Shown: in pieces, positions 31,544 through 58,755 of the stretch
Numbering within the stretch: position 1 is the stretch's first letter
How the letters are laid out: each line of letters starts with the position of its first letter
Source: an uncultured virus (IMG/VR IMGVR_UViG_3300004481_000138)
Lineage: Duplodnaviria; Heunggongvirae; Uroviricota; Caudoviricetes
IMG/VR virus record: IMGVR_UViG_3300004481_000138
Direction: 5' to 3' (one strand)
Length of the DNA: 64,000 nucleotides
Notes under the pieces: generated by a model
The model's database searches: none
Told to the model about the DNA's origin: nothing
The model's input: the letters and a program-made list of their open reading frames with translations, nothing else
Position numbers and translations under genes: made by a program

Positions 31544-31632
31544 ATAAATACAATTTTTTTCTTTTTTTAGTTATTTTTCTAGAAAACAATCACAAGTTTT
31601 ATATAAGAGTGTTCCTCTTATTATAAATACTG

Positions 31633-39791: not shown

Positions 39792-40475
39792 ATGGCTATT
39801 AATCAAAATCCGGTACCAGCAGCCGGCTTTCGGTTTAACAGTTTTGAGGAGATAAAAAGTCATTCGTCTATCCTTTACAATGAAAGAATGGCTATTCTCT
39901 TTTATATTTTGGATATGAAATCTATAAGTATGAACACTAATTATAATGTTAATGATATACTTGAAGTTCGTGCAGTACTCAAACAAATTTATAATAATGT
40001 AAGAATGTTAATACGTTTTAATCCAACTTGTCGTGCTACATTAAATCTTGATACCAAGGATGATGGAATATATATTACTGATGTAGCATTAAGTACTATT
40101 GATAGAATGATTGAATATTGTGAGACTGGAGGGTATACTATTAGGAAGGTATATATTATAGTGCAGGAGATTAATCGTGTACAAACACTTTTGCGTGATA
40201 TCCTACAATATTTTCATTATTTTATACGTCCTGATTTCAGACAAAAACCTGATATCGATGTGGCAACATCTCAATACCAACAAATAGCTGATTTAACAAC
40301 TGTTGAAGAATTGCGTGCTTTAGTTGGCAGGAATAATTTAATTGATTTTGAGAGTCTTGGTAGTTCAAGGATTGAACTACAACAAGCTGAGGAATTAGAG
40401 GAAAGTCCTGAAAGTCTTGCAGAGTTAGAAGCCGACAACAACATTGCTGGTGAGACTGATGAAAAGAGTATGTGA
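39792..40475 (+). CDS. Hypothetical helical protein with acidic tail
   Basis: GAGGT RBS, 227 aa. Confidence 0.55.
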   Translation: MAINQNPVPAAGFRFNSFEEIKSHSSILYNERMAILFYILDMKSISMNTNYNVNDILEVRAVLKQIYNNVRMLIRFNPTCRATLNLDTKDDGIYITDVALSTIDRMIEYCETGGYTIRKVYIIVQEINRVQTLLRDILQYFHYFIRPDFRQKPDIDVATSQYQQIADLTTVEELRALVGRNNLIDFESLGSSRIELQQAEELEESPESLAELEADNNIAGETDEKSM

Positions 40476-41310
40476 TATATGTAATAAAGAATTTGAAACA
40501 TCACAATATAATAAAAAACATTGCAGTAAAAAATGTTCTAATATAAATAAACAAGAAAAATTAAAGCAATGGTTTTTAAAAAATAAAAAAGAAGTTTATG
40601 AAAAATTTGAGATTAAATGTGATATATGTAGTAAAATATTTTTTGGTAAAAAAAATCAAAAAAGATGTAGTAATAAATGTGCGCATATAAATAAATTACA
40701 AAATATTAATAAGAAAAGTTATGAAAATAATAAAGAAAAATATTTAAAAAAGAGAATAGAAAAAACGTGTGATATTTGTAATAAATTATTTTTAGGTGAT
40801 TTAACACAAAAAAGGTGTAGTATAAAATGTTCAAAAAAAGCAGGATTAAGGAGAGATTGGAATAGATATTTAGAGAATAAGGAAGAAAATGATAAAAAAA
40901 TAAAAACTAGAAATTTAAAAAATATTGACCATATGAGAAAAGTAAATAGAGAATATGCAAAATTAAAAAGAAAAAATGATGTAAATTTTAAAATTGCACA
41001 TAATTGTAGAATAAGAATAAGAGGAATGTTAAAAGTTAAAAATATAAAAAAATCATTACATAGTAGAGAATTAATTGGATGTTCCCCACAATTTTTTAAA
41101 GAACATTTAGAAAATCAGTTCAAGCCCGGTATGGCTTGGAGTAATTATAATTTTTATGGTTGGCATATTGACCATAAAATACCTTTGTCAAATTTTGATT
41201 TAACTAAAGAAGAGGAACAAAAAAGAGCTTTTCATTATTCTAATTGTCAACCGCTTTGGATGTGTGATAATTTGGTTAAGAGTGATAAATATGAAAGCAC
41301 ACCTAACTGA
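40459..41310 (+). CDS. HNH-type homing endonuclease-like protein with three Cys4 repeats
   Basis: Three CDIC..CSxKC units; C-terminal WHIDHKIP..FHYSNCQPLW..NL, paralogous to 30124..30624. Confidence 0.75.
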   Translation: MKRVCDICNKEFETSQYNKKHCSKKCSNINKQEKLKQWFLKNKKEVYEKFEIKCDICSKIFFGKKNQKRCSNKCAHINKLQNINKKSYENNKEKYLKKRIEKTCDICNKLFLGDLTQKRCSIKCSKKAGLRRDWNRYLENKEENDKKIKTRNLKNIDHMRKVNREYAKLKRKNDVNFKIAHNCRIRIRGMLKVKNIKKSLHSRELIGCSPQFFKEHLENQFKPGMAWSNYNFYGWHIDHKIPLSNFDLTKEEEQKRAFHYSNCQPLWMCDNLVKSDKYESTPN

Positions 41311-42214
41311 TTTGTCAATGTATAAGCTTTGGTTGGGGGAAAAACGTAATCTTTCTGCAAGCAGCATTCATGTTTATTGTGAGGCTGTTGAACGTTTTTT
41401 AAAAACAGACCCCGACATAGATAGTTTAGAATGCTATAATAATTTTATTATTGAGCATGCTATAAAAAAGCGTTGCTATCATTATTATAGTGCGTTGAAA
41501 GCATTTATTGAATACAAAATTGCTGATGCCAACATCCGTGCTAGATTGATTGATAATATGATACGTGCACAAATGAATAGTGATATCAAGATGGAAAGGA
41601 AGTATTTATCTGAGGAAGAAATACTTGAGGTAGTCAACCATATTAAACAGTCTAAGCATAGAGTGATTGCACTGATACAAATGCTTACGGGCGTGCGTGC
41701 TGGCGATGTATTACGTTTAAAGCGTGATAATATTATGCCTGAGGAATATAAGGGGCATCCTGTACTCCGTATTAATATAACTGGTAAGGGTAAAAAACGT
41801 AATGTTATTTTTATTCATGATGAGATTGCTCAAGAAGTTATTATGGATTATATTACACAAATTTATAATCATGATGAATATTATTTTATTGAGCTAGGCA
41901 GGATGAAAGGTAGAAAGGGTGATATTACTAATGAATTTAAATTACAAAAAATGAATTATAATTGGTATTGGGCTGATGTTAAAGAGGCATTACAGAGTTG
42001 TGGTATTAATTTTAAAGACTGGGCAACACACGACTTTCGTAGAGGTTATGCCAGACGTGCATGGGAGAAATGGAAGGATATACATATTTTACAGAGTTTA
42101 TTAAACCATTCCAATCCTGCAGTTACATTAAGATATTTATCACAATCAGGATTACGGAATGTTGACTACCATTATGAGATGCAAATGGGGAATAATAAAG
42201 AAGTAAAACAATAA
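41291..42214 (+). CDS. int: Tyrosine recombinase/integrase
   Basis: TGVRAGD (R), GKGKKR (K), HDFRR (HxxR), LNHSN..T.RY (H, Y). Confidence 0.9.
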   Translation: MKAHLTDLSMYKLWLGEKRNLSASSIHVYCEAVERFLKTDPDIDSLECYNNFIIEHAIKKRCYHYYSALKAFIEYKIADANIRARLIDNMIRAQMNSDIKMERKYLSEEEILEVVNHIKQSKHRVIALIQMLTGVRAGDVLRLKRDNIMPEEYKGHPVLRINITGKGKKRNVIFIHDEIAQEVIMDYITQIYNHDEYYFIELGRMKGRKGDITNEFKLQKMNYNWYWADVKEALQSCGINFKDWATHDFRRGYARRAWEKWKDIHILQSLLNHSNPAVTLRYLSQSGLRNVDYHYEMQMGNNKEVKQ

Positions 42215-42232
42215 ATATATATATAAATGACC
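42213..42232 (+). promoter_or_regulatory. TATATAAATGACC promoter upstream of the small-protein array
   Basis: Identical 20-mer to 30862-30881. Confidence 0.65.
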
Positions 42233-42383
42233 TTATATATTAAATATTAGCGTAGGTGATTTTGTTGAAATTCAAGGATAGATTTACAGATAGAAATATT
42301 AGTTATGAATGGCCGTTGAGAATTGTTGGACATAAGGTAATAATTCCAAAAAATGATAGTTATAAGTTTACAAGGTGATGAAA

Positions 42384-42590
42384 ATGGGTTGTAAAGTAAT
42401 AAGAAATATTTTAGGTAAAGATGTTAGTAAGAATAGAAAAGATAATAATAATTTAGTATGGTCTCCAAAATCAAAAAGATTGGTTAGATATGAGAGACCA
42501 AATTATAAAAAAGATGAAGATTTAGAAGGTAAAGATTTAGAATTAAAATATCCTAGAGGTGTATATAAGAGGCGAATAAAAAATGGTTAG
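42384..42590 (+). CDS. Small basic protein with ILG-x-D N-terminal tag
   Basis: MGCKVIRNILGKDVSKNR; GGTGA RBS. Confidence 0.55.
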   Translation: MGCKVIRNILGKDVSKNRKDNNNLVWSPKSKRLVRYERPNYKKDEDLEGKDLELKYPRGVYKRRIKNG

Positions 42591-42807
42591 AGATATTTCA
42601 TCAAGTGAGGTAACAAGCAGTATTGGCGAGAGCGGAGTTCCTTATTCACAAGAATTCCAATCACGTATTATACGTCATGTGATGGACAAATATAATTTTT
42701 CTAGAGAGGAAGCAAGACAATTTGTTACACGAGCGAGAAGCCAAGGTGCCTATACTGATGCAGACTATCTGCAGTTGGCTAGAAGGCGAAAACAATGGTG
42801 ATTTAAA

Positions 42808-43077
42808 ATGAACCCAATAAAAAAGATATTAGGATACGATGTAGGAAAGAATAGAGTAGGATATACAGTAAAAGGAAAGGCTGTCATTCCAGGAAAAATG
42901 TATGATGAAAATGTAAATTTATTACGTTTACCAGAAGGACACGAATTCAATTCAGAAGGAACAAAATATAAATATTATTCACGTAGTCCTTTACTTTGTC
43001 CAAGTTGTGATAATCCATTAGTTGGTATTAAAACAGGAAAAAATTCATTTAAATTAATTTGTACAAATTGTCAATAG
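42808..43077 (+). CDS. Small basic protein with ILG-x-D tag and C-terminal Zn ribbon
   Basis: MNPIKKILGYDVGKNR; CPSC..CTNC. Confidence 0.6.
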   Translation: MNPIKKILGYDVGKNRVGYTVKGKAVIPGKMYDENVNLLRLPEGHEFNSEGTKYKYYSRSPLLCPSCDNPLVGIKTGKNSFKLICTNCQ

Positions 43078-43089
43078 AGGTAAAAGAAA

Positions 43090-43317
43090 TTGAATCCAGT
43101 TAAAAAAATATTAGGTAAAACAAATAGGAATAAAATATTAGTGTATGATATTATAGGTAAGTCAAGGACTGCTCCTTCATATGAAAGTCCAGAAGAACAT
43201 CTTGAAGCAGTAGAAAGAGCATTTGGTACCAGCGGAAGGAGTACAATGGAAAAAAGTATTCAAGAAGGACGGCTTGTCTGGAGTTCACGTACAGGAAGAT
43301 ATGAAAAAAATTATTAA
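43090..43317 (+). CDS. Small basic protein with ILG tag
   Basis: TTG start, NPVKKILGK; GAGGT RBS. Confidence 0.5.
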   Translation: MNPVKKILGKTNRNKILVYDIIGKSRTAPSYESPEEHLEAVERAFGTSGRSTMEKSIQEGRLVWSSRTGRYEKNY

Positions 43318-43333
43318 ATTAGGGTGATGTAAA

Positions 43334-43525
43334 ATGGGTTGTAGGATTGTTAAAAAAATACTTGGTAAAGATAAAAGTAAAGATAGGACAGAATATGGAG
43401 AAGGATGGGACAAAATTGAATGGAAAGAAAGTCCATATGGTGGTAAGCCAATACTTACAAGGACTAGGCTTAAAAAAAAGACCCCTCAATCAGTTATTGA
43501 TGATATTAATAAAAGATTTAAATAA
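43334..43525 (+). CDS. Small basic protein with ILG-x-D tag
   Basis: MGCRIVKKILGKDKSKDR; GGTGA RBS. Confidence 0.55.
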   Translation: MGCRIVKKILGKDKSKDRTEYGEGWDKIEWKESPYGGKPILTRTRLKKKTPQSVIDDINKRFK

Positions 43526-44071
43526 ACAAAGGTGATGGAAAAATGGTAAAATTGTGGAAAGAACAGACAGATTTGAAGAAGGTTACAGATAGGGTTTATC
43601 CTACTACTGGTAAGGATGAAGTTAGGGAGCAGGTTGATAAAGCAAGAAAAAGTAAGGCTGCAAAAGACCCTAAAGATGTTGTAGAAAATTTGAAACCAAA
43701 AAAGTATCCTAATTATAAAAATTAAAGGCGGTTAGGATGAAGAAGTTGAAGGAATATAAGTTTCATTATAATAATAAAGAAGTTGGTGTTATACTAGCGT
43801 ATGACCGTAATGAAGCTTATGATAAAGCCGAGGCAATTGCTAGGAGGATGGGTGAGGGAAAAACATTTGGTGTAAAAGTAGTGGAGAGGCTGATGTAAAA
43901 TGGTGAAAAACGCAAGGAAAATAATAAAAAAGACATATAGTAGGAGCAGCCAAGGTACAAACAGTTTTGGGCAGGGTGTATCAAGATGAGTAAAGTAAAA
44001 AAGAATGCCTCTAAGAAGGTGTTTAATAATATTAAGAGTGGATGGGGAATGAAATAGGAAGGTGGATTAAA

Positions 44072-44224
44072 ATGGAATTTTATAGCGTAGTGTTGAAGAA
44101 GAAAATAGAGATTCCTGCAAATAAAATAAAGACTGTTGTGAGGAAGGGCAGAAAGTTTGCTGTTGGCAAGTATGAAGCTAAAGGCAAAACTTATGAGGCT
44201 TGGCGAGTGTTAGGGAAGGTGTAA
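44072..44224 (+). CDS. Small basic beta protein resembling archaeal chromatin protein CC1
   Basis: MEFYSVVLKKKIEI..RKGRKFAVG..WRVLGK resembles the recalled CC1 pattern (F..K..RG..FAV..YRLLGK). Confidence 0.45.
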   Translation: MEFYSVVLKKKIEIPANKIKTVVRKGRKFAVGKYEAKGKTYEAWRVLGKV

Positions 44225-44226
44225 AA

Positions 44227-44412
44227 ATGGTATATAAACCAAAAATTACTAGTTGGGGTATAAAGAAAGGAACATCTATTGAGATGGAACATACCAAAAG
44301 TAAAAAGTTTGCTAAAAAGATAGCAATGGACCATTTGCATGAATTTGGTGATGCTTATTATAAAGGGTTAGTAAAACTTGAAAGAAAATTAGCAAAACAA
44401 CAAAAGAAATGA
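44227..44412 (+). CDS. DUF5661-like viral protein
   Basis: G..IEMEHT....A.KIAMDHL.E...YY..L..LE motif. Confidence 0.6.
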   Translation: MVYKPKITSWGIKKGTSIEMEHTKSKKFAKKIAMDHLHEFGDAYYKGLVKLERKLAKQQKK

Positions 44413-44546
44413 TAAGAAAAGTCCGTAATAAACAATTATGGAAGGTAGTGAGTGAGAACACAGGCAGAAGTTTTGGCACTTATAGGAGTAAGAAGAAGGC
44501 GAAAAATCGTCTTCGCGAAATTGAATTTTTTAAACATAAAAGGTGA
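44409..44546 (+). CDS. Small basic viral protein (not in ORF track)
   Basis: MIRKVRNKQLWKVVSENTGRSFGTYRSKKKAKNRLREIEFFKHKR; ATGA overlap with the upstream stop. Confidence 0.5.
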   Translation: MIRKVRNKQLWKVVSENTGRSFGTYRSKKKAKNRLREIEFFKHKR

Positions 44547-44747
44547 TGTAAGATGACAGATGGTGTACCAAACATTGTAGGACCTATAGCAGGTTTAGTA
44601 GGCATTGGTGTTATGGCTGGTGTGGCAAATGAAGTAATTAAAACTGTTGGTGAACAAGGACAGTTTAAGGGAAAGAAGAAGAAGGCTAGATATGTAACTA
44701 AATCTTTCTCTGAAGGAATGGATGAAAGGATTAGAAGGATGATTTAA

Positions 44748-45008
44748 ATGAACCCAGTAAACAAGATATTAGGCGGTTATAAAGACCCAAGTAAAAATAA
44801 AAAAGCAGAATGGGTTACAATCAGTGGGCAAAAATATTTAGTTGAATATAGAAAATTTATATGTCCAAATTGTAATAAAAAAGTTGATGGTGAATTTACT
44901 TGGGAATATATGGGTGGCGGAAATGTAACGTGTCCATTATGTAATGAAAGTTTTGAATATCCAATTAGAGATAGTGATAAATTTGTTGGATTAAAAAAAA
45001 GAGGATGA
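44748..45008 (+). CDS. Small protein with ILG tag and Zn ribbon
   Basis: MNPVNKILGGYKDPSKNK; CPNC..CPLC. Confidence 0.6.
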   Translation: MNPVNKILGGYKDPSKNKKAEWVTISGQKYLVEYRKFICPNCNKKVDGEFTWEYMGGGNVTCPLCNESFEYPIRDSDKFVGLKKRG

Positions 45009-45014
45009 TATAAA

Positions 45015-45362
45015 GTGAATCCAGTTGAAAGGATATTAGGATATGATATAAGTAAAAATAGAGATATTATTGATAAGAAAGGATATTTGCAAGATAGTGA
45101 GAGAGGCACTAAAAAGTTAAGGAAAATATTTGTTAAACGGGCAAAATCCGTTGCTAATCCCTTACCTAACAACCCTTATAATGTTGAAAGACAGGATGAA
45201 TATGTGCCAATATGGGTTCCTTTTGAGGAGAAAGAAAAGATTGATGTTAATAATGAAATATTTAAAATTATTGATAACCCAAAATTAACACAAGTACAAA
45301 AAATAGAAAAACTTAAACCATATGAAACATGGATGAGAAATAAAGGTTGGAGGTATCCATAA
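45015..45362 (+). CDS. Small basic protein with ILG-x-D tag
   Basis: GTG start, NPVERILGYDISKNR. Confidence 0.55.
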   Translation: MNPVERILGYDISKNRDIIDKKGYLQDSERGTKKLRKIFVKRAKSVANPLPNNPYNVERQDEYVPIWVPFEEKEKIDVNNEIFKIIDNPKLTQVQKIEKLKPYETWMRNKGWRYP

Positions 45363-45579
45363 AATGGTTTCACCAATAAAATATTTTAGTAAAGACCCAA
45401 ACGGTTGGGGTCGGGGTCCTGGAGTTTACTATTTAAGAGGTCATGGCAAGTATAGTAAATACAGTAGAGAACGTGATGCTAGGAAGAAGAGTAAAGGCTG
45501 GCAAGTTGATAAGATTGGACTTCCTAAAAAAACTAGGATTCCTCATGTTAGTGATGGGCGCTTGTGGCGGTGAATAAGA

Positions 45580-48237
45580 ATGAAAAAGTTATTATTATTC
45601 ATGATAATATTATTATTGCCATTGTTTGTATCTGCAACACTTACTGATGGACTTGTATCCTATGTACCTTTCAATGATGGAACAATAGGCGCAGCTATAG
45701 ATGTATATGGTATATATGGCATGACAGGCACAGCAGAGCCAGCAAATATTGTTGGCTATGACTGGTTTAATATGGTCAGCAGCTCAGCTAATATGTCTAG
45801 TGCTGTGCCTCTTGATGAAGGCTATACTGTGAGCATGTGGCTTTATGGCTGCTTGGAAGATTATGCTTTTTCTAAAGGCGAAATGGACGGTAGCGGCAAC
45901 GCTATTGCATTCGGGCATCAAGCAGCTCCTGAAGGTTATGAAGAATATAACGGCAGGAATGTATTTTCTGTCTATCTCATCCAAGATACATGGGATGCTT
46001 ATCAAGGTTATTATTTCAAGAATTGGAGCGGAGTATCTAGTGTTGGATGTTCTTTCAATCTTACTGTGCCTACACATTTTATCGTGACGATAGAAAATTT
46101 TAATGCTTCACTATATGTCGATAGCATAAATATCGAACAGATAAACTTTACAGATGATGGCGGTGCAGTAGATAATGTTACTACAGATAATGTTTTCGAG
46201 TTTGCAGGCGTCTTATCCTCCTTTGGCGGAGATTATTATGTGAAAGATTTTGCTGTATGGGATAGGATATTATCAGGAGCAGAAATTTCTGAGCTATACG
46301 CAAATAATGGGAATCCGTTGTTTAATGGTTCTGGAACAGCAGAAGACCCTTACCAAGTGACTAGCTGTACAAACCTGCAAGAGGTGAATAATGATTTATC
46401 AGCATATTATCTTGTCATGAATGACATAAATTGTTCAGATACTGTAAACTGGAATAGCGGTTTAGGATTCATCCCAATAGGGAATGCAACACAAAGCACT
46501 ATGGAAGTTGGTAGGCTCTTTATGGGCGTATTTGATGGGCAAGGCTATACTATTTCAGGATTATTCATAAATCGCACAACGATGCATTCGGGATTGTTTG
46601 GTGCATCTGGTGGCGTGATAAAAAATGTTGTATTGACAGATGCCTATGTCTATGCAGCCAGTAATCAGGTAGGCATCCTTGCAGGTGGCATAAACACTAG
46701 CGGTATAGTATATAATTGTTCTTCGTCAGGATTTGTTTCTGGTGAAGAATATGTCGGTGGGCTAGTGGGTTTTGTGCTTGGCAGCGTATATACTTCTCGC
46801 AGTGATGCGCATGTCGAGTGCATAATTGCTGAATGCGGCGGATTAGTTGGTGGCACATACGATGTTGGAAGCATCTATGATTCATATAGCATGGGTATAT
46901 TGGATGATGAAAGCAAAGATGCTACTGGAGGATTTCTAGGTTATGCTGAAGGCTCAGGCATAATATATCATGTATATACTAATAATTCTATTGAATCATC
47001 TGCTGGTGGCGGGCTGATAGGGTCAAATGAAGGTCTTACTATCGATAATTCTTATTATGATGCAAATACTACTGGTGCTGGAAATGATAATGGCTTAGGG
47101 ACACCAAAATCTACTGCTGAGATGAAGACTCAAGGCACATTTATTGATTGGGATTTCGATAATATATGGCAGATATGTGCCGAAGTTAATGATGGCTATC
47201 CTTCATTGATAGGTGTTGATGATGAATGTGTTGCATGCACATCTAATTGGTCTTGTAGTGGTTATGGTGCCTGTAATATTTCTGATTTGCGTCCTTGTAA
47301 TGAAACTGTTGATTTGAATGTTTGTGGTGAGGAATATTCTGGGGATTATAGTGAGTTTACTCCACAAGCATGTGATTATTGTGCACCTGACTGGTCTCCT
47401 TTTTATCAACCCACTACTTGTCCTAGTAATAGTTTATGGACTAAATTATATACTGACCTAAATAGTTGTGGACAGCCAGCACCAGGAGATAATGGAACAC
47501 TAGTTGGCTGTATATATACACCACCAGTATATGAAAGTCAGACATTTGAAGGCAAGACAACAACAGATTTAAATACTGTAGAAAACATTAGTGCAGTAGA
47601 AAATTTTACAATAGCTTCATCCTCAGGGGTTGTTGAATTTACCAGTACTGTTGATTTATCAAATATTACTAATGTGGAACAGATTATATTAGTAACTTCA
47701 AATTTGATATCAGTTAATGTTACAGCAGTTCCATCACTTAATACATCAGCAGATGTAATATTAGATGTACCAGCACCAAACATATTTAGTTCACCGTGTG
47801 ATGATTTTAATTTATATTATAGTAGTGGTTATTATACCACAGTTGAAGATATAATTGCTAATGGTATTGTTGTTGCAACAAGTGCTAATATAGGAGGAGA
47901 TTGCACAGATAGTAATATATGTACCAATGTCCAATGTATTAATGGTCAATTATCATTTACAGCACAACACTTTGATGGATTTGGTGTGGGATTAGGTACT
48001 CCTGAGGCAGTTGAAAGTTGTAAAAGTACACAAGCAACTATATTTGCGGCATTTAGTATTATTGCATTATTTGTTATAGTAGGGGCGGCGTTTCTTATAA
48101 TAAATATGTTGAAAGGTGGTGATTTTGATAGTGGTTTAATAATTGCTGGTATTATAGGTTTTATTGCTGTTGCAATAGTAGTATTTATTGGATATTTGAT
48201 AATAAGTGAAGTAGCAGCCGGAATATGTCTTATATAA
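45580..48237 (+). CDS. Secreted adhesin (LamG + GLUG/beta-helix + Cys-rich) ending in a permuted capsid-like two-helix module
   Basis: Signal peptide; DFAVWDRILS (LamG); GSGTAEDPYQV, FDGQGYTISGL, VGGLVG (GLUG-type); C-terminal helices match the capsid helices in swapped order. Confidence 0.75.
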   Translation: MKKLLLFMIILLLPLFVSATLTDGLVSYVPFNDGTIGAAIDVYGIYGMTGTAEPANIVGYDWFNMVSSSANMSSAVPLDEGYTVSMWLYGCLEDYAFSKGEMDGSGNAIAFGHQAAPEGYEEYNGRNVFSVYLIQDTWDAYQGYYFKNWSGVSSVGCSFNLTVPTHFIVTIENFNASLYVDSINIEQINFTDDGGAVDNVTTDNVFEFAGVLSSFGGDYYVKDFAVWDRILSGAEISELYANNGNPLFNGSGTAEDPYQVTSCTNLQEVNNDLSAYYLVMNDINCSDTVNWNSGLGFIPIGNATQSTMEVGRLFMGVFDGQGYTISGLFINRTTMHSGLFGASGGVIKNVVLTDAYVYAASNQVGILAGGINTSGIVYNCSSSGFVSGEEYVGGLVGFVLGSVYTSRSDAHVECIIAECGGLVGGTYDVGSIYDSYSMGILDDESKDATGGFLGYAEGSGIIYHVYTNNSIESSAGGGLIGSNEGLTIDNSYYDANTTGAGNDNGLGTPKSTAEMKTQGTFIDWDFDNIWQICAEVNDGYPSLIGVDDECVACTSNWSCSGYGACNISDLRPCNETVDLNVCGEEYSGDYSEFTPQACDYCAPDWSPFYQPTTCPSNSLWTKLYTDLNSCGQPAPGDNGTLVGCIYTPPVYESQTFEGKTTTDLNTVENISAVENFTIASSSGVVEFTSTVDLSNITNVEQIILVTSNLISVNVTAVPSLNTSADVILDVPAPNIFSSPCDDFNLYYSSGYYTTVEDIIANGIVVATSANIGGDCTDSNICTNVQCINGQLSFTAQHFDGFGVGLGTPEAVESCKSTQATIFAAFSIIALFVIVGAAFLIINMLKGGDFDSGLIIAGIIGFIAVAIVVFIGYLIISEVAAGICLI

Positions 48238-48324
48238 TCATATTCTTTTAATGAATATAGAAAATTCATAAACTTTATATATTATATAGTGTTTATTCTA
48301 TTAATGGTAAGTTTAAATAAGTAG

Positions 48325-49047
48325 GTGATGTATATGAAGATTGTTGAAGAGTTTAATTCTTTGCAGGGTGAAGGAAAATATTTAGGTGTACCAAGTTTCT
48401 TCGTTCGTACAACTGTGTGCAATCTTAGATGTGCATGGAAAAATAATGATTATACAATAACCATATGTGATAGTGCATATACTAGTTGGAATCCTGAGAA
48501 AGGTAAGGATGTTGATGGCAAACATATTTATGATAAAGTGAAAGGTACACAAACTAAGCATGTTGTAATCACGGGGGGTGAGCCAACCTTACAGCCTGAC
48601 CTGGCTGATGTGGTAACTTACCTAGTTGAGAATGGGTTGAGTGTAACAATTGAGACTAATGGTACAAAGTATGTTAAACTGCCAAAAAATACTTTTATTA
48701 GTATTTCACCAAAAACCAGTAATAGTTATGCTCAAGAAAAAGGTAGTATTGAGGAAAAAATGCATAAGAAGAATAATGTTTTTATTGATGCTATTAGGCA
48801 ATGGATTGAGAACAATGATTATCAATTAAAGTTTGTTTATAATAGTTTGAGTGATATTAAAGAAATTGAGTATATACAAACAGAATTAAATGTTCCAAAT
48901 AATAAGATATATCTTATGCCTCAAGGTATTAATGTGTTGCAGTTTAAGGATAAACAGAAAGAGTTGTTTGATTTATGTATTAATAAAGGTTGGACTTATA
49001 CTCCTCGTTTACATATTGAGATTTTTGGGAATATTCGTGGCATATGA
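48325..49047 (+). CDS. queE: QueE-like radical SAM (7-carboxy-7-deazaguanine synthase family)
   Basis: SLQGEG, CNLRC..(insert)..CDS, VITGGEPTLQ, IETNGT, SISPK, LMPQG, PRLH. Confidence 0.85.
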   Translation: MMYMKIVEEFNSLQGEGKYLGVPSFFVRTTVCNLRCAWKNNDYTITICDSAYTSWNPEKGKDVDGKHIYDKVKGTQTKHVVITGGEPTLQPDLADVVTYLVENGLSVTIETNGTKYVKLPKNTFISISPKTSNSYAQEKGSIEEKMHKKNNVFIDAIRQWIENNDYQLKFVYNSLSDIKEIEYIQTELNVPNNKIYLMPQGINVLQFKDKQKELFDLCINKGWTYTPRLHIEIFGNIRGI

Positions 49048-49060
49048 TTTATTATAGAGG

Positions 49061-49190
49061 GGGTTGATAGTTTAACATATTTTTCCATCATTTTTCACCA
49101 CCCGTGATTTTTTTTGGAAAACTAAAACATTCCTGGTTTCGACTCACCTCTTTTCCAGGAAAGATGAGAGTTTAAATCTCTCTCAACCTA
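49061..49190 (+). ncRNA. tRNA-shaped RNA with expanded D and anticodon loops
   Basis: Acceptor GGGTTGA/TCAACCT, T8A9, D stem GTTT/AAAC, stem TTCCTGG/CCAGGAA, variable AGAT, T arm GAGAG-TTTAAAT-CTCTC. Confidence 0.65.
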
Positions 49191-49888
49191 TAACAATAAT
49201 AAAATGAAAAAAGATAAATGTGTTAAATGTGGTAAATTTTTTATACATTTGAATAGGATGTTTAAGAGTAAGAAAGGTAGGTTTGTTTGTATGGATTGTG
49301 ATGAGGGAGAAGTATAAAATGATTAGTGTGGTAATATTAATTAATGGTTATCCTGTTATGGCTCGGTCTGCTTTTAGAACTACTGATAATAAAGAGGATG
49401 AAGAAAATGATTATCAAGTAGATACGGGAGAAGTTTTGGTACATATACCGGATAAAGGAGCTATTCCATTATGTAAGGCGTTACTTGATACAATTAAAGA
49501 GAATGAATTAAGTGATTAAAATGGATGTTAATAATTATAATCCCTTCCTTCCATTTAAATGGCTTTTTGATTATTCACATTTTTTATTTTGGCTATGTTT
49601 AGCTATTATATTTTGTGTTATATTTTATATCATATTATTTAAGAGAAGGAGGCAGAATGGTTGATGTTAATATTTGGACTATTATTATGATAGCATTTTT
49701 TACTGGATTAGGCAGTGGTATGGGCGCGCCTATAGGCGCACACATTTATGAAAAATATGTTAAAGATAAATTGATGAAGACTACTTCATCTGCTGATATT
49801 TTAAAAGAAAAATTAAAGAATGAAGTAACTAAAAGCTTAGATGTTGGTAAGAATGTTGAGGAGAAGATATTAGGTAAACAATTATAAA

Positions 49889-50062
49889 ATGTTAGAAAAA
49901 CAGCTTTGTTGGAAGTGTGGCCAATTTACTAATATAACATGGCATCATGCTCTTCCTATGAGGATGCATCCAATGACTAATGTTTTAATTCCTTTATGCC
50001 ATAAATGTCATAATTATATTAATAAAATACCAAATAAAGATTTGATAGAGGAAGTGGAATGA
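49889..50062 (+). CDS. Small HNH-like protein (not in ORF track)
   Basis: CWKC..WHHALP..NVLIPLCHKCH; related to 52015..52317. Confidence 0.5.
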   Translation: MLEKQLCWKCGQFTNITWHHALPMRMHPMTNVLIPLCHKCHNYINKIPNKDLIEEVE

Positions 50063-51290
50063 AATATGTAAAATATTGTAATAATATTGATTGCAAGAAT
50101 AGAATGGAAATTACTTTTAATGGAATAGATAATATTAAAAAAATAGATGTAACTATTATTTGTAAGAATTGTAAAAAAGAAAATATATGGGGGATAAATA
50201 ACTAAAATGATATGTAGTGTTTGTAAAAAGAACTTTAATGCATCGCACGAAGTAAGAGACTTGAATAATAATACATATTGTAGTATTGAATGTCTTGTAA
50301 AAAAAGTGACTAGAAATGAGCAATGAAACCGCCATAGCCTTACAGGTATTGGATTTGTTGAAAGGAACCAATATTGGTGATTTAACTAATCAAATATTGT
50401 TGGCATTTGGTGGTATTGCAAGTGTAACCATAATATATTTTTTGTTGATGATATATTATCAAGTACAAGTTAATAAAAAATTGAAAGAACAAAGGGCAGA
50501 TATAGACTTATTAATTTTATTGGTGCATAGTCAGAAAAAGAAATTGGACGACCTTCACAAAGTATTAATATTAGAAGAGATAAAGGATAGTGGTGGTAAA
50601 CAAAAAGTTAAGAGAGATAATAGTTTGGATAGTGCTAACATTAATTATAATTTTGACAATGATGGGTTTTTTCCTGTAAGAGGTAAAGATGGTCATTGAT
50701 ATGGATTGGGTGTGGATTATTGGGGGTATAGGTTTAGGTGCGTTTGCTACCTATTGGTTATTTAATTGGTTTAGTGGGTAAAAAATGGTAACATATAATC
50801 AGTTAAAGAAAGAGTTTAATAAAAAAGTTGAAAGTTTACAAAGTAGTTGTAAACACAAAAATCTAACCCCTTGGTTAGAAGAATGGTGGGCTCCTGGTCA
50901 TTCCACTGGTAATGTAGTTAAGATATGTAGGAAATGTAATAAGGTTATAAAGAAAACTAATTCTTCTGTTAATCATTAATTTTTTAGTTGTGTTGGGTAC
51001 TTTATATTATAGAGATATTAGTGATATTTGTACATAAAGTATTATTCTGCCAACGGTCACTAGAATTACAAATTGTTGGGGGTTTGTAATTGCCGTTGGC
51101 AGAAGATGTATTAGTGCTATTATATTCTTTGTTAGGTATTATAACTTTATGTTGGTTGGTTTGATTATAAATTATAATTCCAACAGTTGCAGCCATTATA
51201 AATATGAATATTAGTATTAAAATCCATCCAGGGCTTGTTTGTGATTTTTTGTTACCCATTTTAATTAGAATATATTATATAATATAAATG

Positions 51291-51677
51291 TTATGATGTT
51301 TTTTTAGTATATATGATTAGCATGGTCAGTAATGCTATGATTATACCCATTGGATATTGTATTACTTCTGTCAATGTTTGTATTTTTTTTAAATCATATA
51401 TTTCTTGTGTTGATAAATTGTTACAAGTTGCATCAGTATAAAATCCTTCAAAGTCAAATCCGTATGTTATATCTGTACAACCATATTCTTTAAATACCTG
51501 TCCATGTGTCTCTTCATGTACAACAACAAATAATAGTAGGCAGAATGCTACAAGACATAAGCCTATATAATCAAAATTTAGAATTGTATTTTTAATCCAG
51601 TTAAATACTCTTTTAAAGATGTTACCCTTACTTTGATGTTTTCGTCTTTCTTCCAATTCTAATAGTTCGGGTAACAT
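51291..51677 (-). CDS. Membrane HExxH metalloprotease-like protein
   Basis: TM helix ending in VHEETHG; second TM. Confidence 0.5.
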   Translation of the reverse strand: MLPELLELEERRKHQSKGNIFKRVFNWIKNTILNFDYIGLCLVAFCLLLFVVVHEETHGQVFKEYGCTDITYGFDFEGFYTDATCNNLSTQEIYDLKKIQTLTEVIQYPMGIIIALLTMLIIYTKKTS

Positions 51678-52014
51678 TTTTTTATGATGTTAAATTCATA
51701 TCAAGAAATTTGTCATATACATATATGGTTGAGTTGTTGCTAAATTGTATTGTTTCATTTGTTTGATTATAATATATGTATGTTATATTCTTATTTATTG
51801 GAATTTCTTTATATGTTATTATTCCAACAATTATTATACCTACTATCATTAATATTAATATTGTCAATACTCTTAAATTTATTGGTATTATTATTTCATT
51901 ATTTTTCGCCATTTTGATTTACATTCATTACTACAGAAAGTTTTATGTTTATAAATATGTTCAGTCACTGATTTTAATCCTTTACCACAATATCTACAAT
52001 ATGAATAAAATAGT

Positions 52015-52317
52015 TTACTTGTCATTTTTTATTTTTATTATTGTCATCTTACCAAGCATATTATTCAATCCTTCAACAGACCTTGTAAGTGTGTCAACTT
52101 GTTTCTGTAGTTTATATGCATGTGCTGTCAAACTACTAACATCTTGACTGGTAATCTCTTTATGGCATTTTTCATGTATTGGCACAGTGATATTATTAAC
52201 TGGTGAAAGTTGTTGTGGTAGTGTGTGATGTATTGTTCTTGATAGTTCTATATCATCTTGTTTAAATGGCTGGCCACATTTCCAGCATTTATCATCTTGT
52301 ATATTTAGTATGGTCAT
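52015..52317 (-). CDS. Small HNH-like protein with coiled-coil tail
   Basis: CWKC..HHTLP..NNITVPIHEKCH. Confidence 0.5.
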   Translation of the reverse strand: MTILNIQDDKCWKCGQPFKQDDIELSRTIHHTLPQQLSPVNNITVPIHEKCHKEITSQDVSSLTAHAYKLQKQVDTLTRSVEGLNNMLGKMTIIKIKNDK

Positions 52318-53379
52318 GGTTTTGTTTCCTCATGTGTTGGCGGTATTTCTGTTTCTTCTTTTGGTATGGCTGGTGTCTCAGGCTCTTCAGGCATTTCAAC
52401 AATTACCTCAATACGATTAATTGGTATAAATACCTCTTTAGGAAGATTATCAAGTTCCATATATCCGTTTGCCTCTTTACTATATACTAAAGCACGATTT
52501 GGTATCATTCGTATAAATTCTGTTCCAAAAAATACTTCACCAAAATATAGCATACCACTAACTGTTTCAACTCTCATCATTTTGTATCACCTTTAGCTTT
52601 TTTAATGTATTTTATTATGCCCAATTCTTTCTTGAAATGACATTTACCACATTCGTACCTGTAATGTATGTTTTCACTTGCTGATAAAGACTTAACTCTT
52701 ATAGTTTTTGTCATACAATTACAATATTTACATAGGCTTATTTCATCATTCATTTTGTATCTTTCCTTTTTTAGTAATATTTTTCTCCATCTTCCATTCC
52801 CATTCACAATCACAATCATTACAATTATAGGTTTCTAATTCATAATACCCTTGACCATCAGTTTGATGGTTTGTTATTTCAATATTTAGACTTCCACAAT
52901 TTGGGCATACCATTTTTATTATAACCATTTATTTTTATAGTATATCTAGCTTTTGATATACAAAATCACCTGTTATTTAAGGTCTAGTGTATGATTATTG
53001 TTGTTTTGTATGTTTGTATGTTTAAAAATTTGTGGTGATTTCCACTGTTTATGTATGAATATCTCTTTATGGCATAAACAGCAGGTATATATACCGTTAA
53101 TAGATAGTTCAATATTACGGCCTTCCTGTTTACAAGAACAGTAATTTTTCTCTAAATCGTCCAATATAACTCACCGCCTATATGATTATAATTAAAATAA
53201 AAAAAAAGAGAAAGCAGTTTATTCCTCTACTTTCTTTCCTAACATTTTGTTGATTTTTTCATCAACGTTCTCTGTCATTCCAAACTGTTCTCTAATCTTC
53301 TTCATATATTCATTATCTTCGAACATATTATACCACCTCACTTATTATATATAGAATAAAAGTAAACAAATATATAAAC

Positions 53380-55239
53380 TTATTGATTTAGTAAAAGATT
53401 AATAATTGTGTCTTTTTCTAGGCTTTGTGGGGATAAATCAATATCTGCCTCTGTCTTATCTTCTACTATTTTTGCTCCTGCCTGCACTAATAATTCATTC
53501 AAATTTATTGTATTTCTATAATAATCATACAGATAATTCTTACTATGAATAACATAATCACGTCCTGATGATGTAATGTTATTTCCGATATATGTTTCAG
53601 CAAAATAAAATTTGCTTCCTTCACTTGTTACAACTAATAATCCAAGTATTTTCTGTTTTTGATTGATTTTAGTATTAGTTAATGTTAAGATATTGTTTGG
53701 GTTGACTGTATAATTATGTTTGAAATCGTCTGGTTTTTCTTTTGCAACAATTATTTGGAATGGAACCTCAGTCTCTTCTTTATAGTTATAATAATTAAGA
53801 TTTATAATATATGATTTTTCTGTTTGTCTTTTTACATATAAAAATTCACTTGCACCATTAGGTTTTTGAGCATCAGTCATATCACCTGAAAATAATACTG
53901 ATGAATTACTATCTCTCCAATAACCGTCCCAACCAACTTTTCCATCCATATTAATCATTGAAAGGTCTAAGTCAATCCTATTGTGTTTTACATTCTCCCA
54001 ATGCACACCAACAATCATATCATTTGGTATTGTTATGTATGTTCCAGAAGGAAATACTCCTGTGAACTGTTTTTCTGTTGCTGGAAGCGCATAATTTATA
54101 TATTCAGGAATATATATCTTTTTACCTTTTACTTTCAAGTCTTTAACTATTGAGGCAATAACTATCTCATATATTTTTTTAGCATAAGATTGTTTGTCAA
54201 ATTCAAAGCTTGTAGCATAGCTTTTACCATTTCTTATTTTGTATAATATTGAGGATACTTCTCTTGTTCTGAATTTTAAAGCGTATGCTAATCTTATTTT
54301 TCTAAAGATATTAGCTTCATCTAATTCTTTTTGTAGTTCATTTTTGTTTATTCTTGTTATGTTTGCAGTTATATTATTTAAGTAGTCTTCTTTCATTGGT
54401 TTATGATTTTTTACTGCTAATTTTCTTATTTTATTAATTATTTGTGAAAGTTGTGGTTTCTTTTGCTTAAATGCTAAGAATAATGGTTTGTATCTGTAAA
54501 AAATTTCTGAAAGCTTTTCATATCCATATTTTTTGTCATATTTTATTAATAGTGAACCAATATATGCATGTTCTTTGTATTCTTTTATATCATTAATTAT
54601 TTTTTTATTCTTAATAATCAATGTTTTCTTTGTTGATGTATATACTAATAAGCGTAAGAACTCTATCGGATTCTCTGGTATTATATGCAGTTTACTACCT
54701 AATATTATCTTGACCTCCTTATTTTTTATGCTGTCAATCTTGTCTAATTCAACTAATTTAGCTACTTCTACCACGTCATTTATTGTTTCTTCACTCAATG
54801 CAATGCCTGTTTCAAGTAATGCCAATAGTTTTTCTTTCAATTCTTTTTTTGTGTATCCTTTAATAACTATTAGTTCAATATCATTTTTTATGGCATCAAG
54901 TTTTTCAGCTGGGATAAATACTGTATCTTTACTGTATGCATCAACAGATTCTAATCCATATGTTGTGAAATAGTGTATGATTTGCTCTAAGAATAATTGT
55001 TCTATACTACTATTAGCAACTTTTTTCCATGACTTATGGAACGAGTTATTCAATTGTTCTGAGGAACTTCCTAAATCTTTAGCAATCTTTATTAATTCGT
55101 TCTCTTCATAATTGTATATGACTTGTGGTGAGAATACTATGCCATATTTAATAGTTTCTTTTAGAAGATTTTTTGATGGTTGTTTAGTCTTTTTTGACGA
55201 TATTTCTAGTGCTTTGAATAGTTTTATTGTTGCATTCAT
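53380..55239 (-). CDS. Large helical protein with C-terminal TerD-like domain
   Basis: N-terminal FHKSW..EQIIHYFTTYG; C-terminal HW..RIDLDLS..GWDG..FSGDMTDA..GASEF, the TerD-like signature. Confidence 0.6.
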   Translation of the reverse strand: MNATIKLFKALEISSKKTKQPSKNLLKETIKYGIVFSPQVIYNYEENELIKIAKDLGSSSEQLNNSFHKSWKKVANSSIEQLFLEQIIHYFTTYGLESVDAYSKDTVFIPAEKLDAIKNDIELIVIKGYTKKELKEKLLALLETGIALSEETINDVVEVAKLVELDKIDSIKNKEVKIILGSKLHIIPENPIEFLRLLVYTSTKKTLIIKNKKIINDIKEYKEHAYIGSLLIKYDKKYGYEKLSEIFYRYKPLFLAFKQKKPQLSQIINKIRKLAVKNHKPMKEDYLNNITANITRINKNELQKELDEANIFRKIRLAYALKFRTREVSSILYKIRNGKSYATSFEFDKQSYAKKIYEIVIASIVKDLKVKGKKIYIPEYINYALPATEKQFTGVFPSGTYITIPNDMIVGVHWENVKHNRIDLDLSMINMDGKVGWDGYWRDSNSSVLFSGDMTDAQKPNGASEFLYVKRQTEKSYIINLNYYNYKEETEVPFQIIVAKEKPDDFKHNYTVNPNNILTLTNTKINQKQKILGLLVVTSEGSKFYFAETYIGNNITSSGRDYVIHSKNYLYDYYRNTINLNELLVQAGAKIVEDKTEADIDLSPQSLEKDTIINLLLNQ

Positions 55240-55260
55240 TTTTTCACCAACTTTTATGTA

Positions 55261-55321
55261 TCATAGCGGAGAGTAAGTTGAAACCAAATTGATGGATTTT
55301 TAGGAACTCTCTATGCCATGA
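55261..55321 (-). ncRNA. Structured hairpin motif, copy 2 (proximal to the TerD-like gene)
   Basis: UCAUGGC-AUA-GAGAGUUCCUA..UUACUCUC-C-GCUAUGA. Confidence 0.65.
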
Positions 55322-55329
55322 ATGTGAAG

Positions 55330-55392
55330 TGACAAGCGGAAAGTAATTTTTCGTTTGAGTTGAGTTTTTATAGGAACTTTCGTTGCCTGTCA
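55330..55392 (-). ncRNA. Structured hairpin motif, copy 1
   Basis: UGACAGGC-AAC-GAAAGUUCCUA..UUACUUUC-C-GCUUGUCA; covaries with copy 2. Confidence 0.65.
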
Positions 55393-55411
55393 ATAGTATA
55401 ATATTCGTTTA

Positions 55412-55591: not shown

Positions 55592-55703
55592 TGCGAGGAG
55601 TAGGATTTGCACCCACGGTGTGAAACTTATTCAACCAGATATCTCAGCTAGTCTTGAGTTTAGCCCTTAAGTCTGGCCCCTTCGACTACTCGAGCATCCT
55701 CGC
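55592..55703 (-). tRNA. tRNA-Leu(TAA) with 25-nt BHB intron at 37/38
   Basis: CTTA/TGAG central helix, AGG and ATA bulges, GCTA/TAGC outer helix. Confidence 0.85.
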
Positions 55704-55707
55704 TTTA

Positions 55708-55797
55708 TGGAGCTGTGGGGAATTGAACCCCATGCATCCTCATCTCTTTACCATTATGGTATGCAAGTGAGGCGGTCTACCGATGGCCTACAGTCCC
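55708..55797 (-). tRNA. tRNA-Ala(TGC) with 18-nt intron
   Basis: G3:U70; CCTCA/TGAGG stem; relaxed BHB. Confidence 0.8.
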
Positions 55798-55798
55798 A

Positions 55799-55873
55799 TG
55801 GAGCCACCAGAGGGATTTGAACCCTCACCCAGCTGCTTACAGGGCAGTCGCACGACCGTCGTGCTGTGATGGC
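55799..55873 (-). tRNA. tRNA-Thr(TGT), C33, encoded CCA
   Basis: GCCATCA/TGGTGGC, U73; loop CC-TGT-AA; C8/G14. Confidence 0.75.
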
Positions 55874-55950: not shown

Positions 55951-56026
55951 TGGCGTAGCCAAAGAGACTTGCACTCTTACCCTCGTGCTTAACAGGCACG
56001 TGCTCCACTACTTGAGCTATGGCCAC
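55951..56026 (-). tRNA. tRNA-Asn(GTT), encoded CCA
   Basis: CGTGC-CTGTTAA-GCACG, G73. Confidence 0.85.
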
Positions 56027-56732: not shown

Positions 56733-57389
56733 TTACCTTGCTGGAACTTGTATTTTACTCAACCAATACTTTTCAGTATCAACATTCATAATGGCAAGTT
56801 TACCAAGCCAACCTACACCACAGTCCATCATTATAAGTTTTCCAAAACGTATTGGATTATTATATTGATAGGTTTGTGTGGTTGTATGGCCTACAAATAC
56901 ACGTTCATATTCTTTGATTTTTAATCCATTTCTACATCTTTCAATCAAGTCTCTATCCCATGTTAAAGTGTGCCTATCCTGTTTATCTATAGGAAATTTT
57001 GGATTATATCCGCCATGAACAAACAATCTATTGTTTTCTATATAGTAATACACACCGTTATTAAAAAAGTTTTGATGTGTAACTGGTATCATGTATTTAA
57101 ATTGAGCATAAGATTTTATTGTGTTTTTTCCACCTTGTGAAAGCCATATATCTTCACTCCAACCACTTTTCATATAATCCATAAACCATTCATCATGATT
57201 GCCCATTATAAATACTATATTTTTGATTTTAAGTAATTCTTCAACTACTTCATAAGTGTTATATCCACCATCAGTTACATCTCCTAATACTATAAGTTTG
57301 TCCTCATCATAGTTAAATTTACATAAACTTAAAACTTCTTTTAATGCTTCAATTCTTCCGTGGATGTCGCCAATCACAAATGTTGCCAT
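56733..57389 (-). CDS. Calcineurin-like metallophosphoesterase (PPP/ApaH-like)
   Basis: GDIHG, GDVTDGG, GNHD, VHGG, GHT motifs. Confidence 0.9.
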   Translation of the reverse strand: MATFVIGDIHGRIEALKEVLSLCKFNYDEDKLIVLGDVTDGGYNTYEVVEELLKIKNIVFIMGNHDEWFMDYMKSGWSEDIWLSQGGKNTIKSYAQFKYMIPVTHQNFFNNGVYYYIENNRLFVHGGYNPKFPIDKQDRHTLTWDRDLIERCRNGLKIKEYERVFVGHTTTQTYQYNNPIRFGKLIMMDCGVGWLGKLAIMNVDTEKYWLSKIQVPAR

Positions 57390-57548: not shown

Positions 57549-57622
57549 TGAGCTTGCTGGAATTTGAATCCAGACCCTCTCGTTCGTGGCGAGATATGAT
57601 ATCCTAATTTCACTACAAGCCC
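57549..57622 (-). tRNA. tRNA-Arg(ACG), A34 and C33
   Basis: TCTCG-CCACGAA-CGAGA; A20 present. Confidence 0.8.
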
Positions 57623-58095: not shown

Positions 58096-58101
58096 ATTTG
58101 C

Positions 58102-58175
58102 AACGGTGTCAGTTCCAGACCTGACCGTGAACTTCCTTTCAGAAGTCCAGTTGGATTTGAACCAACGTCCCCGTC
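58102..58175 (-). ncRNA. Circularly permuted tRNA-like RNA (T arm, loop-closed acceptor stem, D arm)
   Basis: GACGG-GGAC-GTTGG TTCAAAT CCAAC-TGGACTTC-TGAAAG-GAAGTTCA-CG-GTCA GGTCTGGAAC TGAC-A-CCGTT. Confidence 0.7.
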
Positions 58176-58177
58176 TA

Positions 58178-58357: not shown

Positions 58358-58428
58358 TGCAGTTGCTGGGATTTGAACCCAAAACACCTCCTTGGTGGAG
58401 AGGTATGATACCATTTCACCACAACTGC
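58358..58428 (-). tRNA. tRNA-Gly(ACC), A34 and C33
   Basis: GCAGTTG/CAACTGC; CCTCT-CCACCAA-GGAGG. Confidence 0.75.
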
Positions 58429-58502: not shown

Positions 58503-58507
58503 ATGAA

Positions 58508-58596
58508 TGCTCCTGGCCAGATTTGAACTGGCGTCTCAAAGTTTCTTCATTATTAATTCCAAAGCCTTGTATGCTTGGCCGCTACACCACAGGAGT
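58508..58596 (-). tRNA. tRNA-Gln(TTG) with 16-nt BHB intron
   Basis: CAAGG/CTTTG stem; CTTT/GAAG helix with GGA and AAA bulges. Confidence 0.8.
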
Positions 58597-58602
58597 ATAT
58601 AA

Positions 58603-58679: not shown

Positions 58680-58755
58680 TGGCGGGTCTGCACAGATTTT
58701 CACTGTGATTCTCCTGGGTAAGAGCCAGGTATGTTATTATTTACACCACAGACCC
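58680..58755 (-). tRNA. tRNA-Lys(CTT), encoded CCA
   Basis: CCTGG-CTCTTAC-CCAGG, G73. Confidence 0.8.

Follow-up and report, generated by a model that had tools for sequence, protein, structure and literature searches.

Several RNAs that have the shape of a transfer RNA (tRNA), are made by tRNA-processing enzymes and do not decode are known, among them RNAC and RNAD of bacteriophage T4, the tRNA-like RNAs of gammaherpesvirus 68 and mascRNA. In this study we analysed an element at positions 49061-49190 of the plus strand of IMG/VR record IMGVR_UViG_3300004481_000138, a stretch of 64,000 nucleotides (nt) from an uncultured tailed virus (the whole of which is hereafter called the window). The element differs from all of these RNAs in host and architecture, and its combination of a D-loop hairpin with an enlarged anticodon loop carrying the same short motif is, to our knowledge, found in none of them. 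Our analyses support its descent from a tRNA as opposed to a chance resemblance. We regard it, tentatively, as a tRNA-derived gene of unusual build whose most likely product is a non-decoding tRNA-like RNA; the message-masking function that an earlier note had proposed for it is unproven.

Three archaeal systems are among the closest known. Like the multi-intron tRNA genes of Thermoproteales, Nanoarchaeota and other groups, the element belongs to an archaeal host domain and has a tRNA body interrupted twice, once in the anticodon loop, and its inserts of about 40 and 11 nt lie within the published range of 11-129 nt (PMC4090602), but it has no splice motif at the anticodon loop and a weak one at the D loop, and its product would keep an anticodon stem of 7 base pairs (bp). 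With the t-elements of Haloferax it shares a tRNA-shaped fold that would form part of a longer transcript, beside an RNA whose ends it would define (PMC4946936), whereas it is viral, lies between protein genes and carries two large loop inserts, and its cutting is predicted only. The attachment-site (attP) gene HrrHF2_450 of halovirus HF2 is likewise a poorly scoring tRNA-like gene of an archaeal tailed virus with an integrase (PMC8707807); in contrast to it, the present element is not beside the integrase gene and has no host tRNA match in the sampled genomes, while its 5' acceptor strand is complete and its cloverleaf full. A full-text literature search on tRNA-like elements of archaeal viruses found no such scaffold among the entries covered.

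The acceptor stem of the element is formed by 49061-49067 (tRNA positions 1-7) and 49183-49189, which make 7 bp including one G-U pair. Positions 8-15 follow at 49068-49075, with T8, A9, the 5' strand of the D stem (49070-49073), A14 and A15. The D stem pairs with 49125-49128 (4 bp) and closes a D loop of 51 nt (49074-49124), about 40 nt of which (49076-49115) constitute an insert according to the minimum free energy (MFE) fold, the best-scoring deletion described below and the list of T runs; the earlier note had quoted a string that is indeed present here, and had put the insert at about 45 nt. This region forms a hairpin (49081-49087 with 49115-49121) with an inner stem (49095-49098 with 49104-49107) and an apical loop CACCC (49099-49103), and the insert contains two T5 runs and a T8 run (49108-49115). 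At 49116-49129 the sequence and the ARAGORN drawing of the trimmed form place the GG of positions 18-19, a long remainder of the D loop, the 3' strand of the D stem (49125-49128) and position 26. The anticodon-type arm (49130-49161) consists of a 7-bp stem (49130-49136 with 49155-49161) and an 18-nt loop (49137-49154). The first seven bases of this loop match a tRNA anticodon loop, with T33, TCG at 49139-49141 and A37, and the remainder is an 11-nt pyrimidine-rich insert that contains TCACCTC at 49144-49150, exactly where the earlier note had read it. A 4-nt variable region (49162-49165) and the T arm, with its stem at 49166-49170 and 49178-49182 and its loop TTTAAAT, occupy 49162-49182, and the 3' acceptor strand with the discriminator A (49190) completes the element at 49183-49190, CCA not being encoded. 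The four stems with tRNA-like spacing that had been claimed are all in place, in the MFE fold as well, except that the anticodon-type stem has 7 bp and not 5. The 7-bp acceptor stem and the T arm (a 5-bp stem and a 7-nt loop) adjoin directly, which is the minimal substrate geometry of RNase P and tRNase Z. As had been noted, the element stands alone on the plus strand, away from an array of tRNA genes which ARAGORN and Rfam place on the minus strand at 55.5-59.1 kb.

The predicted fold has an energy of -33.3 kcal/mol (z = -3.71), with none of 200 shuffled sequences folding equally well, and the cloverleaf is retained when 40 nt of flanking sequence are added on each side. Since the minus strand folds similarly (-33.2 kcal/mol, z = -3.20), the assignment to the plus strand rests on tRNA-specific bases and not on energy. 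These bases are T8 and A14, both nearly invariant across 20 aligned tRNAs of the array, the GG of the D loop, A21, T33, A37, G53, T54, T55, A57, A58 and C61. Position 56 in the T loop is T, where C is nearly invariant in the array tRNAs; the conserved set is thus complete but for C56, with G18 and G19 counting only when the D insert is set aside. The comparable fold of the minus strand, together with a 31-codon open reading frame (ORF) that runs from 49091 down to 48996 and is present, with its own GGTGGTGA site, in the ORF list and the sequence, would suit a reading in which the signal belongs to the minus strand, that site explains the motif in the D insert and the cloverleaf is incidental. 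We hold this to be very improbable. The ORF, which is itself unlikely to be real, overlaps the end of the upstream QueE-like gene in antisense and lacks a consensus promoter, a second GAGGTGA on that strand precedes a two-codon frame only, and the tRNA-specific bases fit the plus strand only. The control described next covered both strands.

To assess tRNA descent, one stretch of the D region and one stretch of the anticodon region were deleted in silico in every combination, and the products were scored in ARAGORN. The best product, from which 49076-49115 and 49144-49154 are removed, is a tRNA-Arg(TCG), i.e. with a UCG anticodon, and scores 117.8, within the range of the 24 array tRNAs (98.1-119.2). 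Because a two-deletion search could flatter any sequence, the same kind of search was performed at all 175 places outside the array, on either strand of the window, where a perfect 7-bp acceptor stem abuts a perfect T arm of 5 bp and a 7-nt loop (3,700,881 constructs). The best of the 174 other places reached 94.8, and 165 of the 175 gave no match at the 85% threshold of ARAGORN. These control scores and the tRNA-marking bases lead us to conclude that a tRNA, not chance, is the origin of the element, so that the scaffold part of the earlier proposal is upheld. The boundaries of the inserts are not fixed by this procedure, as 2,123 constructs score at least 98 as Arg-TCG. With a best identity of 68%, the trimmed form is no nearer to any single array tRNA than these are to one another (mean 58%, maximum 76%). 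All 23 of its stem pairs are standard, and its G+C content is 38%, against 42-61% in the array tRNAs. The untrimmed element was not called by ARAGORN, either with default settings or with introns allowed, and the Rfam tRNA model RF00005 gave no match to it at the gathering score (29 bits), nor any in 48950-49300 at E up to 10. Other Rfam families matched the element at chance level only, a circularly permuted reading reached a best score of 81.1, and a preQ1 riboswitch or a box C/D guide in the D insert, judged by eye, had no Rfam support; none of these was retained. No paralogue of the element was found within the window.

Descent from a tRNA leaves room for a gene that has died. According to this explanation, loop expansion and the insertion of a terminator hairpin (T5, T5, T8), at which the QueE message would now end, disrupted a former tRNA-Arg and left the cloverleaf as a relic. 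The loss of C56, a G+C content of 38%, below that of every array tRNA, the isolation from the array, the rarity of the codons concerned and the failure of every standard tool to call a tRNA would all agree with it. Oligo-T is the termination signal of archaea, and the D insert resembles a terminator or attenuator placed after QueE; its T8 run is one of four runs of at least eight T on the coding strand of the plus-strand gene block at 4.3-51 kb, the other three being located at gene ends or between genes. Nevertheless, we judge a relic unlikely. None of the 23 stem pairs is broken despite drift towards the base composition of the genome, when free decay should have broken several, and both inserts sit exactly at positions that the tRNA fold tolerates. 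Moreover, if the T8 run ended all transcripts, about nine small genes up to 50979 would be left without a consensus promoter.

The element might instead be a working tRNA-Arg(UCG) whose D-loop insert and whose insert after position 37 are both introns, removed by a broad-specificity splicing endonuclease and a ligase of the host. Archaeal tRNA introns are recognised through a bulge-helix-bulge, in which two 3-nt bulges are separated by a helix of 4 bp to which the first two anticodon bases contribute; they measure 11-129 nt and occupy many non-canonical sites, with several per gene in some cases (PMC4090602), so that the lengths and sites of both inserts would fit. This geometry, once coded, was present at the canonical site in all four array introns used as positive controls, with 4, 4, 4 and 3 of the 4 central pairs, outer helices of 4-7 and inner helices of 2-5 pairs. 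At the anticodon-loop insert, which is almost purely pyrimidine, the same geometry permits no bulge-helix-bulge, and loop positions 32-35 have no pairing partner. The D insert does show a weak, relaxed helix-bulge motif, with cuts after 49077 and 49119, all four central pairs (two of them G-U), four outer pairs and one inner pair, and its use would give a product scoring 108.7, although many comparable chance pairings occur in this T- and A-rich stretch. The view that the inserts are not spliced out to give an ordinary tRNA therefore holds for the anticodon loop.

Further points speak for a working tRNA: the top ARAGORN score of the trimmed form, its canonical first half of the anticodon loop (T33, A37), its discriminator A and the A after G19. 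Four intron-bearing tRNA genes and a circularly permuted one in the same virus imply a host that copes with broken tRNA genes, and the nearest QueE genes are found in bins of DPANN lineages; ultrasmall archaea (ARMAN) possess a broad-specificity endonuclease (PMC3239211). On the other hand, there is no helix of any kind at the anticodon-loop insert, the anticodon stem stays at 7 bp, two pairs too long, and the trimmed D loop has 11 nt, with six bases between G19 and A21. T runs within a tRNA gene are, in addition, unexpected in archaea. Demand for the tRNA would be close to nil, since a UCG anticodon reads CGA (7 occurrences) and CGG (6), that is 13 of the 13,551 codons counted over the 24 ORFs that encode 150 amino acids or more. 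The array tRNAs match abundant codons (AGA 232, CGT 94, GGT 406, ATA 580, AAA 536), and the Ser and Cys codons, which are used far more than CGA and CGG, are without an array tRNA. A supplementary decoding tRNA is consequently unlikely, and we rate the two-intron gene as a whole as quite unlikely.

The position of the element among its neighbours points to a different role. It begins 13 nt after the stop codon of a gene for a QueE-like radical SAM enzyme (48325-49047, plus strand; PHROG 2076, E = 3.9e-49, and Pfam Radical_SAM) and ends 13 nt before the next ATG, that of an ORF for a four-cysteine, zinc-ribbon-like protein of 37 amino acids (49204-49317, plus strand). In a pattern scan of the window, the promoter consensus of the virus was a CAYAA box 1-4 nt before TTTATATA. 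One such promoter lies ahead of QueE at 48267-48281 and is the only one on the plus strand between 41856 and 57107, and none was found at or inside the element; for this reason the element is most simply considered part of the QueE transcript. The ORF at 49204 departs from most internal genes of the virus in having no GGTGA-type ribosome-binding site upstream. A parallel is found in the array, where a metallophosphoesterase gene (56733-57389, minus strand), which also lacks such a site, has its ATG 4 nt beyond the end of tRNA-Phe (57465-57394, minus strand), a layout that suggests a nearly leaderless message made by 3' processing of the tRNA.

Two other promoter assignments were tried and rejected. 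The T loop could be taken as the TATA box of a leaderless gene at 49204, with a spacing that fits other leaderless starts, but the CAYAA box is missing; a TATA-like string at 49048-49056, as a promoter of the element itself, also lacks a CAYAA box and would place the start in the D loop. Further consensus promoters occur elsewhere in the window, e.g. at 4292, 11633 and 31591 on the plus strand and at 2803, 3529, 51295, 55427 and 56207 on the minus strand, and several first genes begin 29-33 nt after the start of the TATA box and are therefore probably leaderless.

Haloferax has tRNA-like elements on the flanks of another RNA, which RNase P and tRNase Z cleave in vivo (PMC4946936). By analogy, our favoured reading, which we hold with less than even confidence, is that the element is a gene for a non-decoding tRNA-shaped RNA, derived from a tRNA-Arg(UCG) and excised by the tRNA-processing enzymes of the host. 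It would be transcribed within the QueE operon from the 48267 promoter. The element keeps the features that these enzymes read, namely an acceptor stem stacked on the T arm and U8, A14, G18, G19, G53, T54, T55 and A58, and it accommodates two expansions at sites that a tRNA tolerates: a hairpin has grown from the variable D-loop segment, and the anticodon loop is enlarged on a stem that has gained two pairs. Host RNase P and tRNase Z would most likely excise it from the polycistronic RNA; the same cuts would end the QueE message and release a downstream message with a 13-nt leader and no ribosome-binding site, so that the element would punctuate the operon. Some of the transcripts would probably terminate after QueE at the T8 run of the D insert, in which case only read-through RNA would take up the tRNA shape. 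Through its two CACC-tipped arms, the RNA may after excision also have an action of its own.

Several observations weigh against this favoured reading. A covariance model built from 20 array tRNAs, which served as a second and weaker check on tRNA descent and was run with filters off over both strands of 40000-55400, did have its best match in the element, but this match covered the T arm alone (49149-49182; 13.5 bits, E about 0.055), and the model did not bridge the inserts. The helix-bulge motif described above would permit removal of the D insert. With its T8 run the supposed RNA contains what resembles an archaeal terminator, an odd feature if the RNA must be whole, and T56 in place of C could weaken the elbow that RNase P reads. 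A perfectly paired D stem and anticodon arm are superfluous for a pure processing signal and are left unexplained by punctuation alone. Finally, the searches detailed below found no relative of the element in IMG/VR, GenBank phages, JGI metagenomes, GTDB or DPANN genomes, and consequently there is neither covariation for the stems nor conservation for any function; this lack of relatives is the main weakness of every reading.

In IMG/VR, a search by QueE gave two loci at 37-38% identity, whereas searches by a 23-nt T-arm pattern, by a neighbouring protein of 885 amino acids and by the MCM protein gave none. GenBank phages gave no match by DNA or by a 573-amino-acid protein, and at most 33% identity by the QueE protein. 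Among JGI metagenome contigs, 20 loci were found by QueE, the best at 54-57% identity, with other genes following directly after QueE in these relatives. The element was not found downstream of the QueE relatives in GTDB (best 56%, in Pacearchaeota and Woesearchaeota bins), and a DNA search of 401 DPANN genomes returned only AT-rich scraps of about 18-42 nt. At 1503-1960 of one Pacearchaeota-binned contig, the QueE relative gives way to several hundred bases that contain no obvious gene and several short perfect hairpins.

The earlier note had gone further than a scaffold, proposing that the excised tRNA-shaped RNA regulates translation, its UCACC and CACC loops pairing with GGUGA sites or mimicking the 3' end of 16S ribosomal RNA (rRNA), and this reading is in our view distinctly unlikely. 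The start of the ATPase gene, which it had singled out for comparison, does carry, at 10154, the sequence quoted. The genes of the virus make heavy use of sites of the GGTGA type; within 1-51000 the coding strand has 63 copies of GGTGA and 23 of TCACC. Both hairpin tips hold CACC in unpaired form in the MFE fold (CACCC at 49099-49103 and CUCACC at 49143-49148), so that sequence complementary to ribosome-binding sites is exposed there, and the TCACCTC in the 18-nt loop is the single plus-strand copy in the whole window. When mean pairing energies with 75 predicted start regions were compared with those of random genomic pieces of equal length, the D insert ranked 17th of 250 and the loop 5th of 250. 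Both inserts also pair better with start regions than with gene interiors (Mann-Whitney p about 1e-10 and 1e-9), a preference that is trivial because it follows from the motif itself.

Several points are neutral or speak against an anti-Shine-Dalgarno function. TCACC is not enriched on the plus strand (23 observed, about 24 expected from composition), and the first TCACC is half buried in a stem in the predicted fold. Of the start regions, that of the ATPase gene pairs best with the D insert (-23.5 kcal/mol), yet it is no outlier, the next ones having -21.9, -21.1 and -20.3 kcal/mol against a mean of -12.0 and a standard deviation of 4.6 over the translation-initiation regions, and no single target stands out. 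The motifs were chosen after being seen, and a general sponge for ribosome-binding sites would need to equal the messages in amount. In addition, when read on the minus strand, the same letters provide the 31-codon ORF with a good ribosome-binding site and start, and the D insert resembles the ATPase start no more than one start region would resemble another. Masking of messages led by Shine-Dalgarno sequences is thus unproven, and an anti-Shine-Dalgarno function is possible at low probability. The fuller form of the idea, a tRNA-shaped decoy whose body secures host processing and stability while two CACC arms bind GGUGA starts or replace the 16S 3' end, we regard as equally doubtful. The 16S gene, sought for the 3' end of its rRNA, was not found in three bins of the candidate host lineage.

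The search for a host also bears on integration. The window is an AT-rich (32% G+C) genome piece of an archaeal tailed virus, with Pfam matches among its proteins to an MCM helicase, a TFIIB-repeat protein, an XPB-like helicase and a tyrosine integrase, and with tail-fibre-like proteins and the QueE-like radical SAM enzyme identified through PHROGs and Pfam. By QueE alignment search, the nearest QueE genes among species-representative GTDB genomes, at 56% identity, lie on contigs binned with Pacearchaeota and Woesearchaeota, which makes a DPANN-type host a lead suggested by sequence similarity. The integrase gene (41264-42214; Pfam Phage_integrase, E = 6.2e-15) raises the question of whether the element is the attP of this virus, carrying a partial copy of a host tRNA gene as in HF2, whose attP is taken to be a tRNA-like gene of low score close to the integrase (PMC8707807). 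We find this scarcely credible. The element lies 6.8 kb from the integrase gene, inside an operon and not adjacent to it, and its G+C content of 38% and its T loop are unlike those of cellular archaeal tRNAs. Its 36-nt 3' part, with up to three mismatches, occurs in none of the 401 sampled DPANN genomes. The short DNA matches in those genomes do not fall on tRNA genes, as 18 such loci hold one tRNA gene, not at a match.

The array against which the element was compared has oddities of its own. It comprises 24 tRNA genes on the minus strand at 55.5-59.1 kb (the union of 23 Rfam matches and the ARAGORN runs), four of which carry anticodon-loop inserts of 16-61 nt. These intron-bearing genes lie at 55592-55703, 55707-55798, 58507-58597 and 58835-58969 on the minus strand, with inserts of 25, 18, 16 and 61 nt at the canonical site; two of them, labelled 'Stop(tta)' by ARAGORN, are tRNA-Lys(UUU) and tRNA-Gln(UUG) by splice geometry. 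An A at the first anticodon position, which is unusual for archaea, is found in tRNA-Arg(ACG) (57549-57622) and tRNA-Gly(ACC) (58358-58428), both on the minus strand and matching two frequent codons of the virus, CGT (94) and GGT (406). The ARAGORN calls for Thr (55799-55873), Asn (55951-56026), Lys(CUU) (58680-58755) and Tyr (58970-59043), all on the minus strand, end in CCA, whereas those of the other array tRNAs do not. A 79-nt gap in the array (58756-58834, minus strand; 47% G+C) has a long closing helix (-24.9 kcal/mol) and gave no tRNA call even after rotation.

Between tRNA-Val and tRNA-Glu, at 58097-58177 on the minus strand, lies an apparently circularly permuted tRNA gene of 81 nt, in the order T arm, acceptor 3' strand, 7-nt linker, acceptor 5' strand, D arm with GG and 5' strand of the anticodon stem. 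When rotated it scores 100.7 in ARAGORN, where none of 60 random 81-nt windows reached 90 (maximum 81.5). A bulge-helix-bulge-like motif formed with the neighbouring tRNA ends (3 of 4, 4 and 3 pairs) would set a junction giving a CAA anticodon (Leu; 101.2), and an alternative junction would give GCA (Cys; 92.6). Permuted tRNAs are described in algae and some archaea (PMC3218864, PMC3978253), and in the literature covered we found none described for a virus.

Two further regions of the window attracted attention. An ORF of 3,494 amino acids at 18775-29259 encodes Laminin_G_3, Ig-like and PKD-like domains and is possibly a giant adhesin or fibre protein. Clusters of T7-T9 runs at 31200-31225 and 31554-31568 bracket a gene for a 98-amino-acid protein (31247-31543), with a similar short sequence before each, and resemble the paired terminators or attenuators of a highly expressed gene.

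Should the element give rise to a real RNA, a virus would be producing its own tRNA look-alike in an archaeal setting, and tRNA bodies could be regarded as reusable carriers for other RNA modules. In the same case, the tRNA-type punctuation of viral operons would represent a way to leader-poor messages in archaea, and if the decoy were true, it would amount to translational control of a kind not described for archaeal viruses. The window resembles a tailed virus of tiny DPANN-type archaea, with about 25 tRNA genes, four of them with introns and one circularly permuted, and constitutes a compact test bed for the origin, spread and repair of broken tRNA genes.

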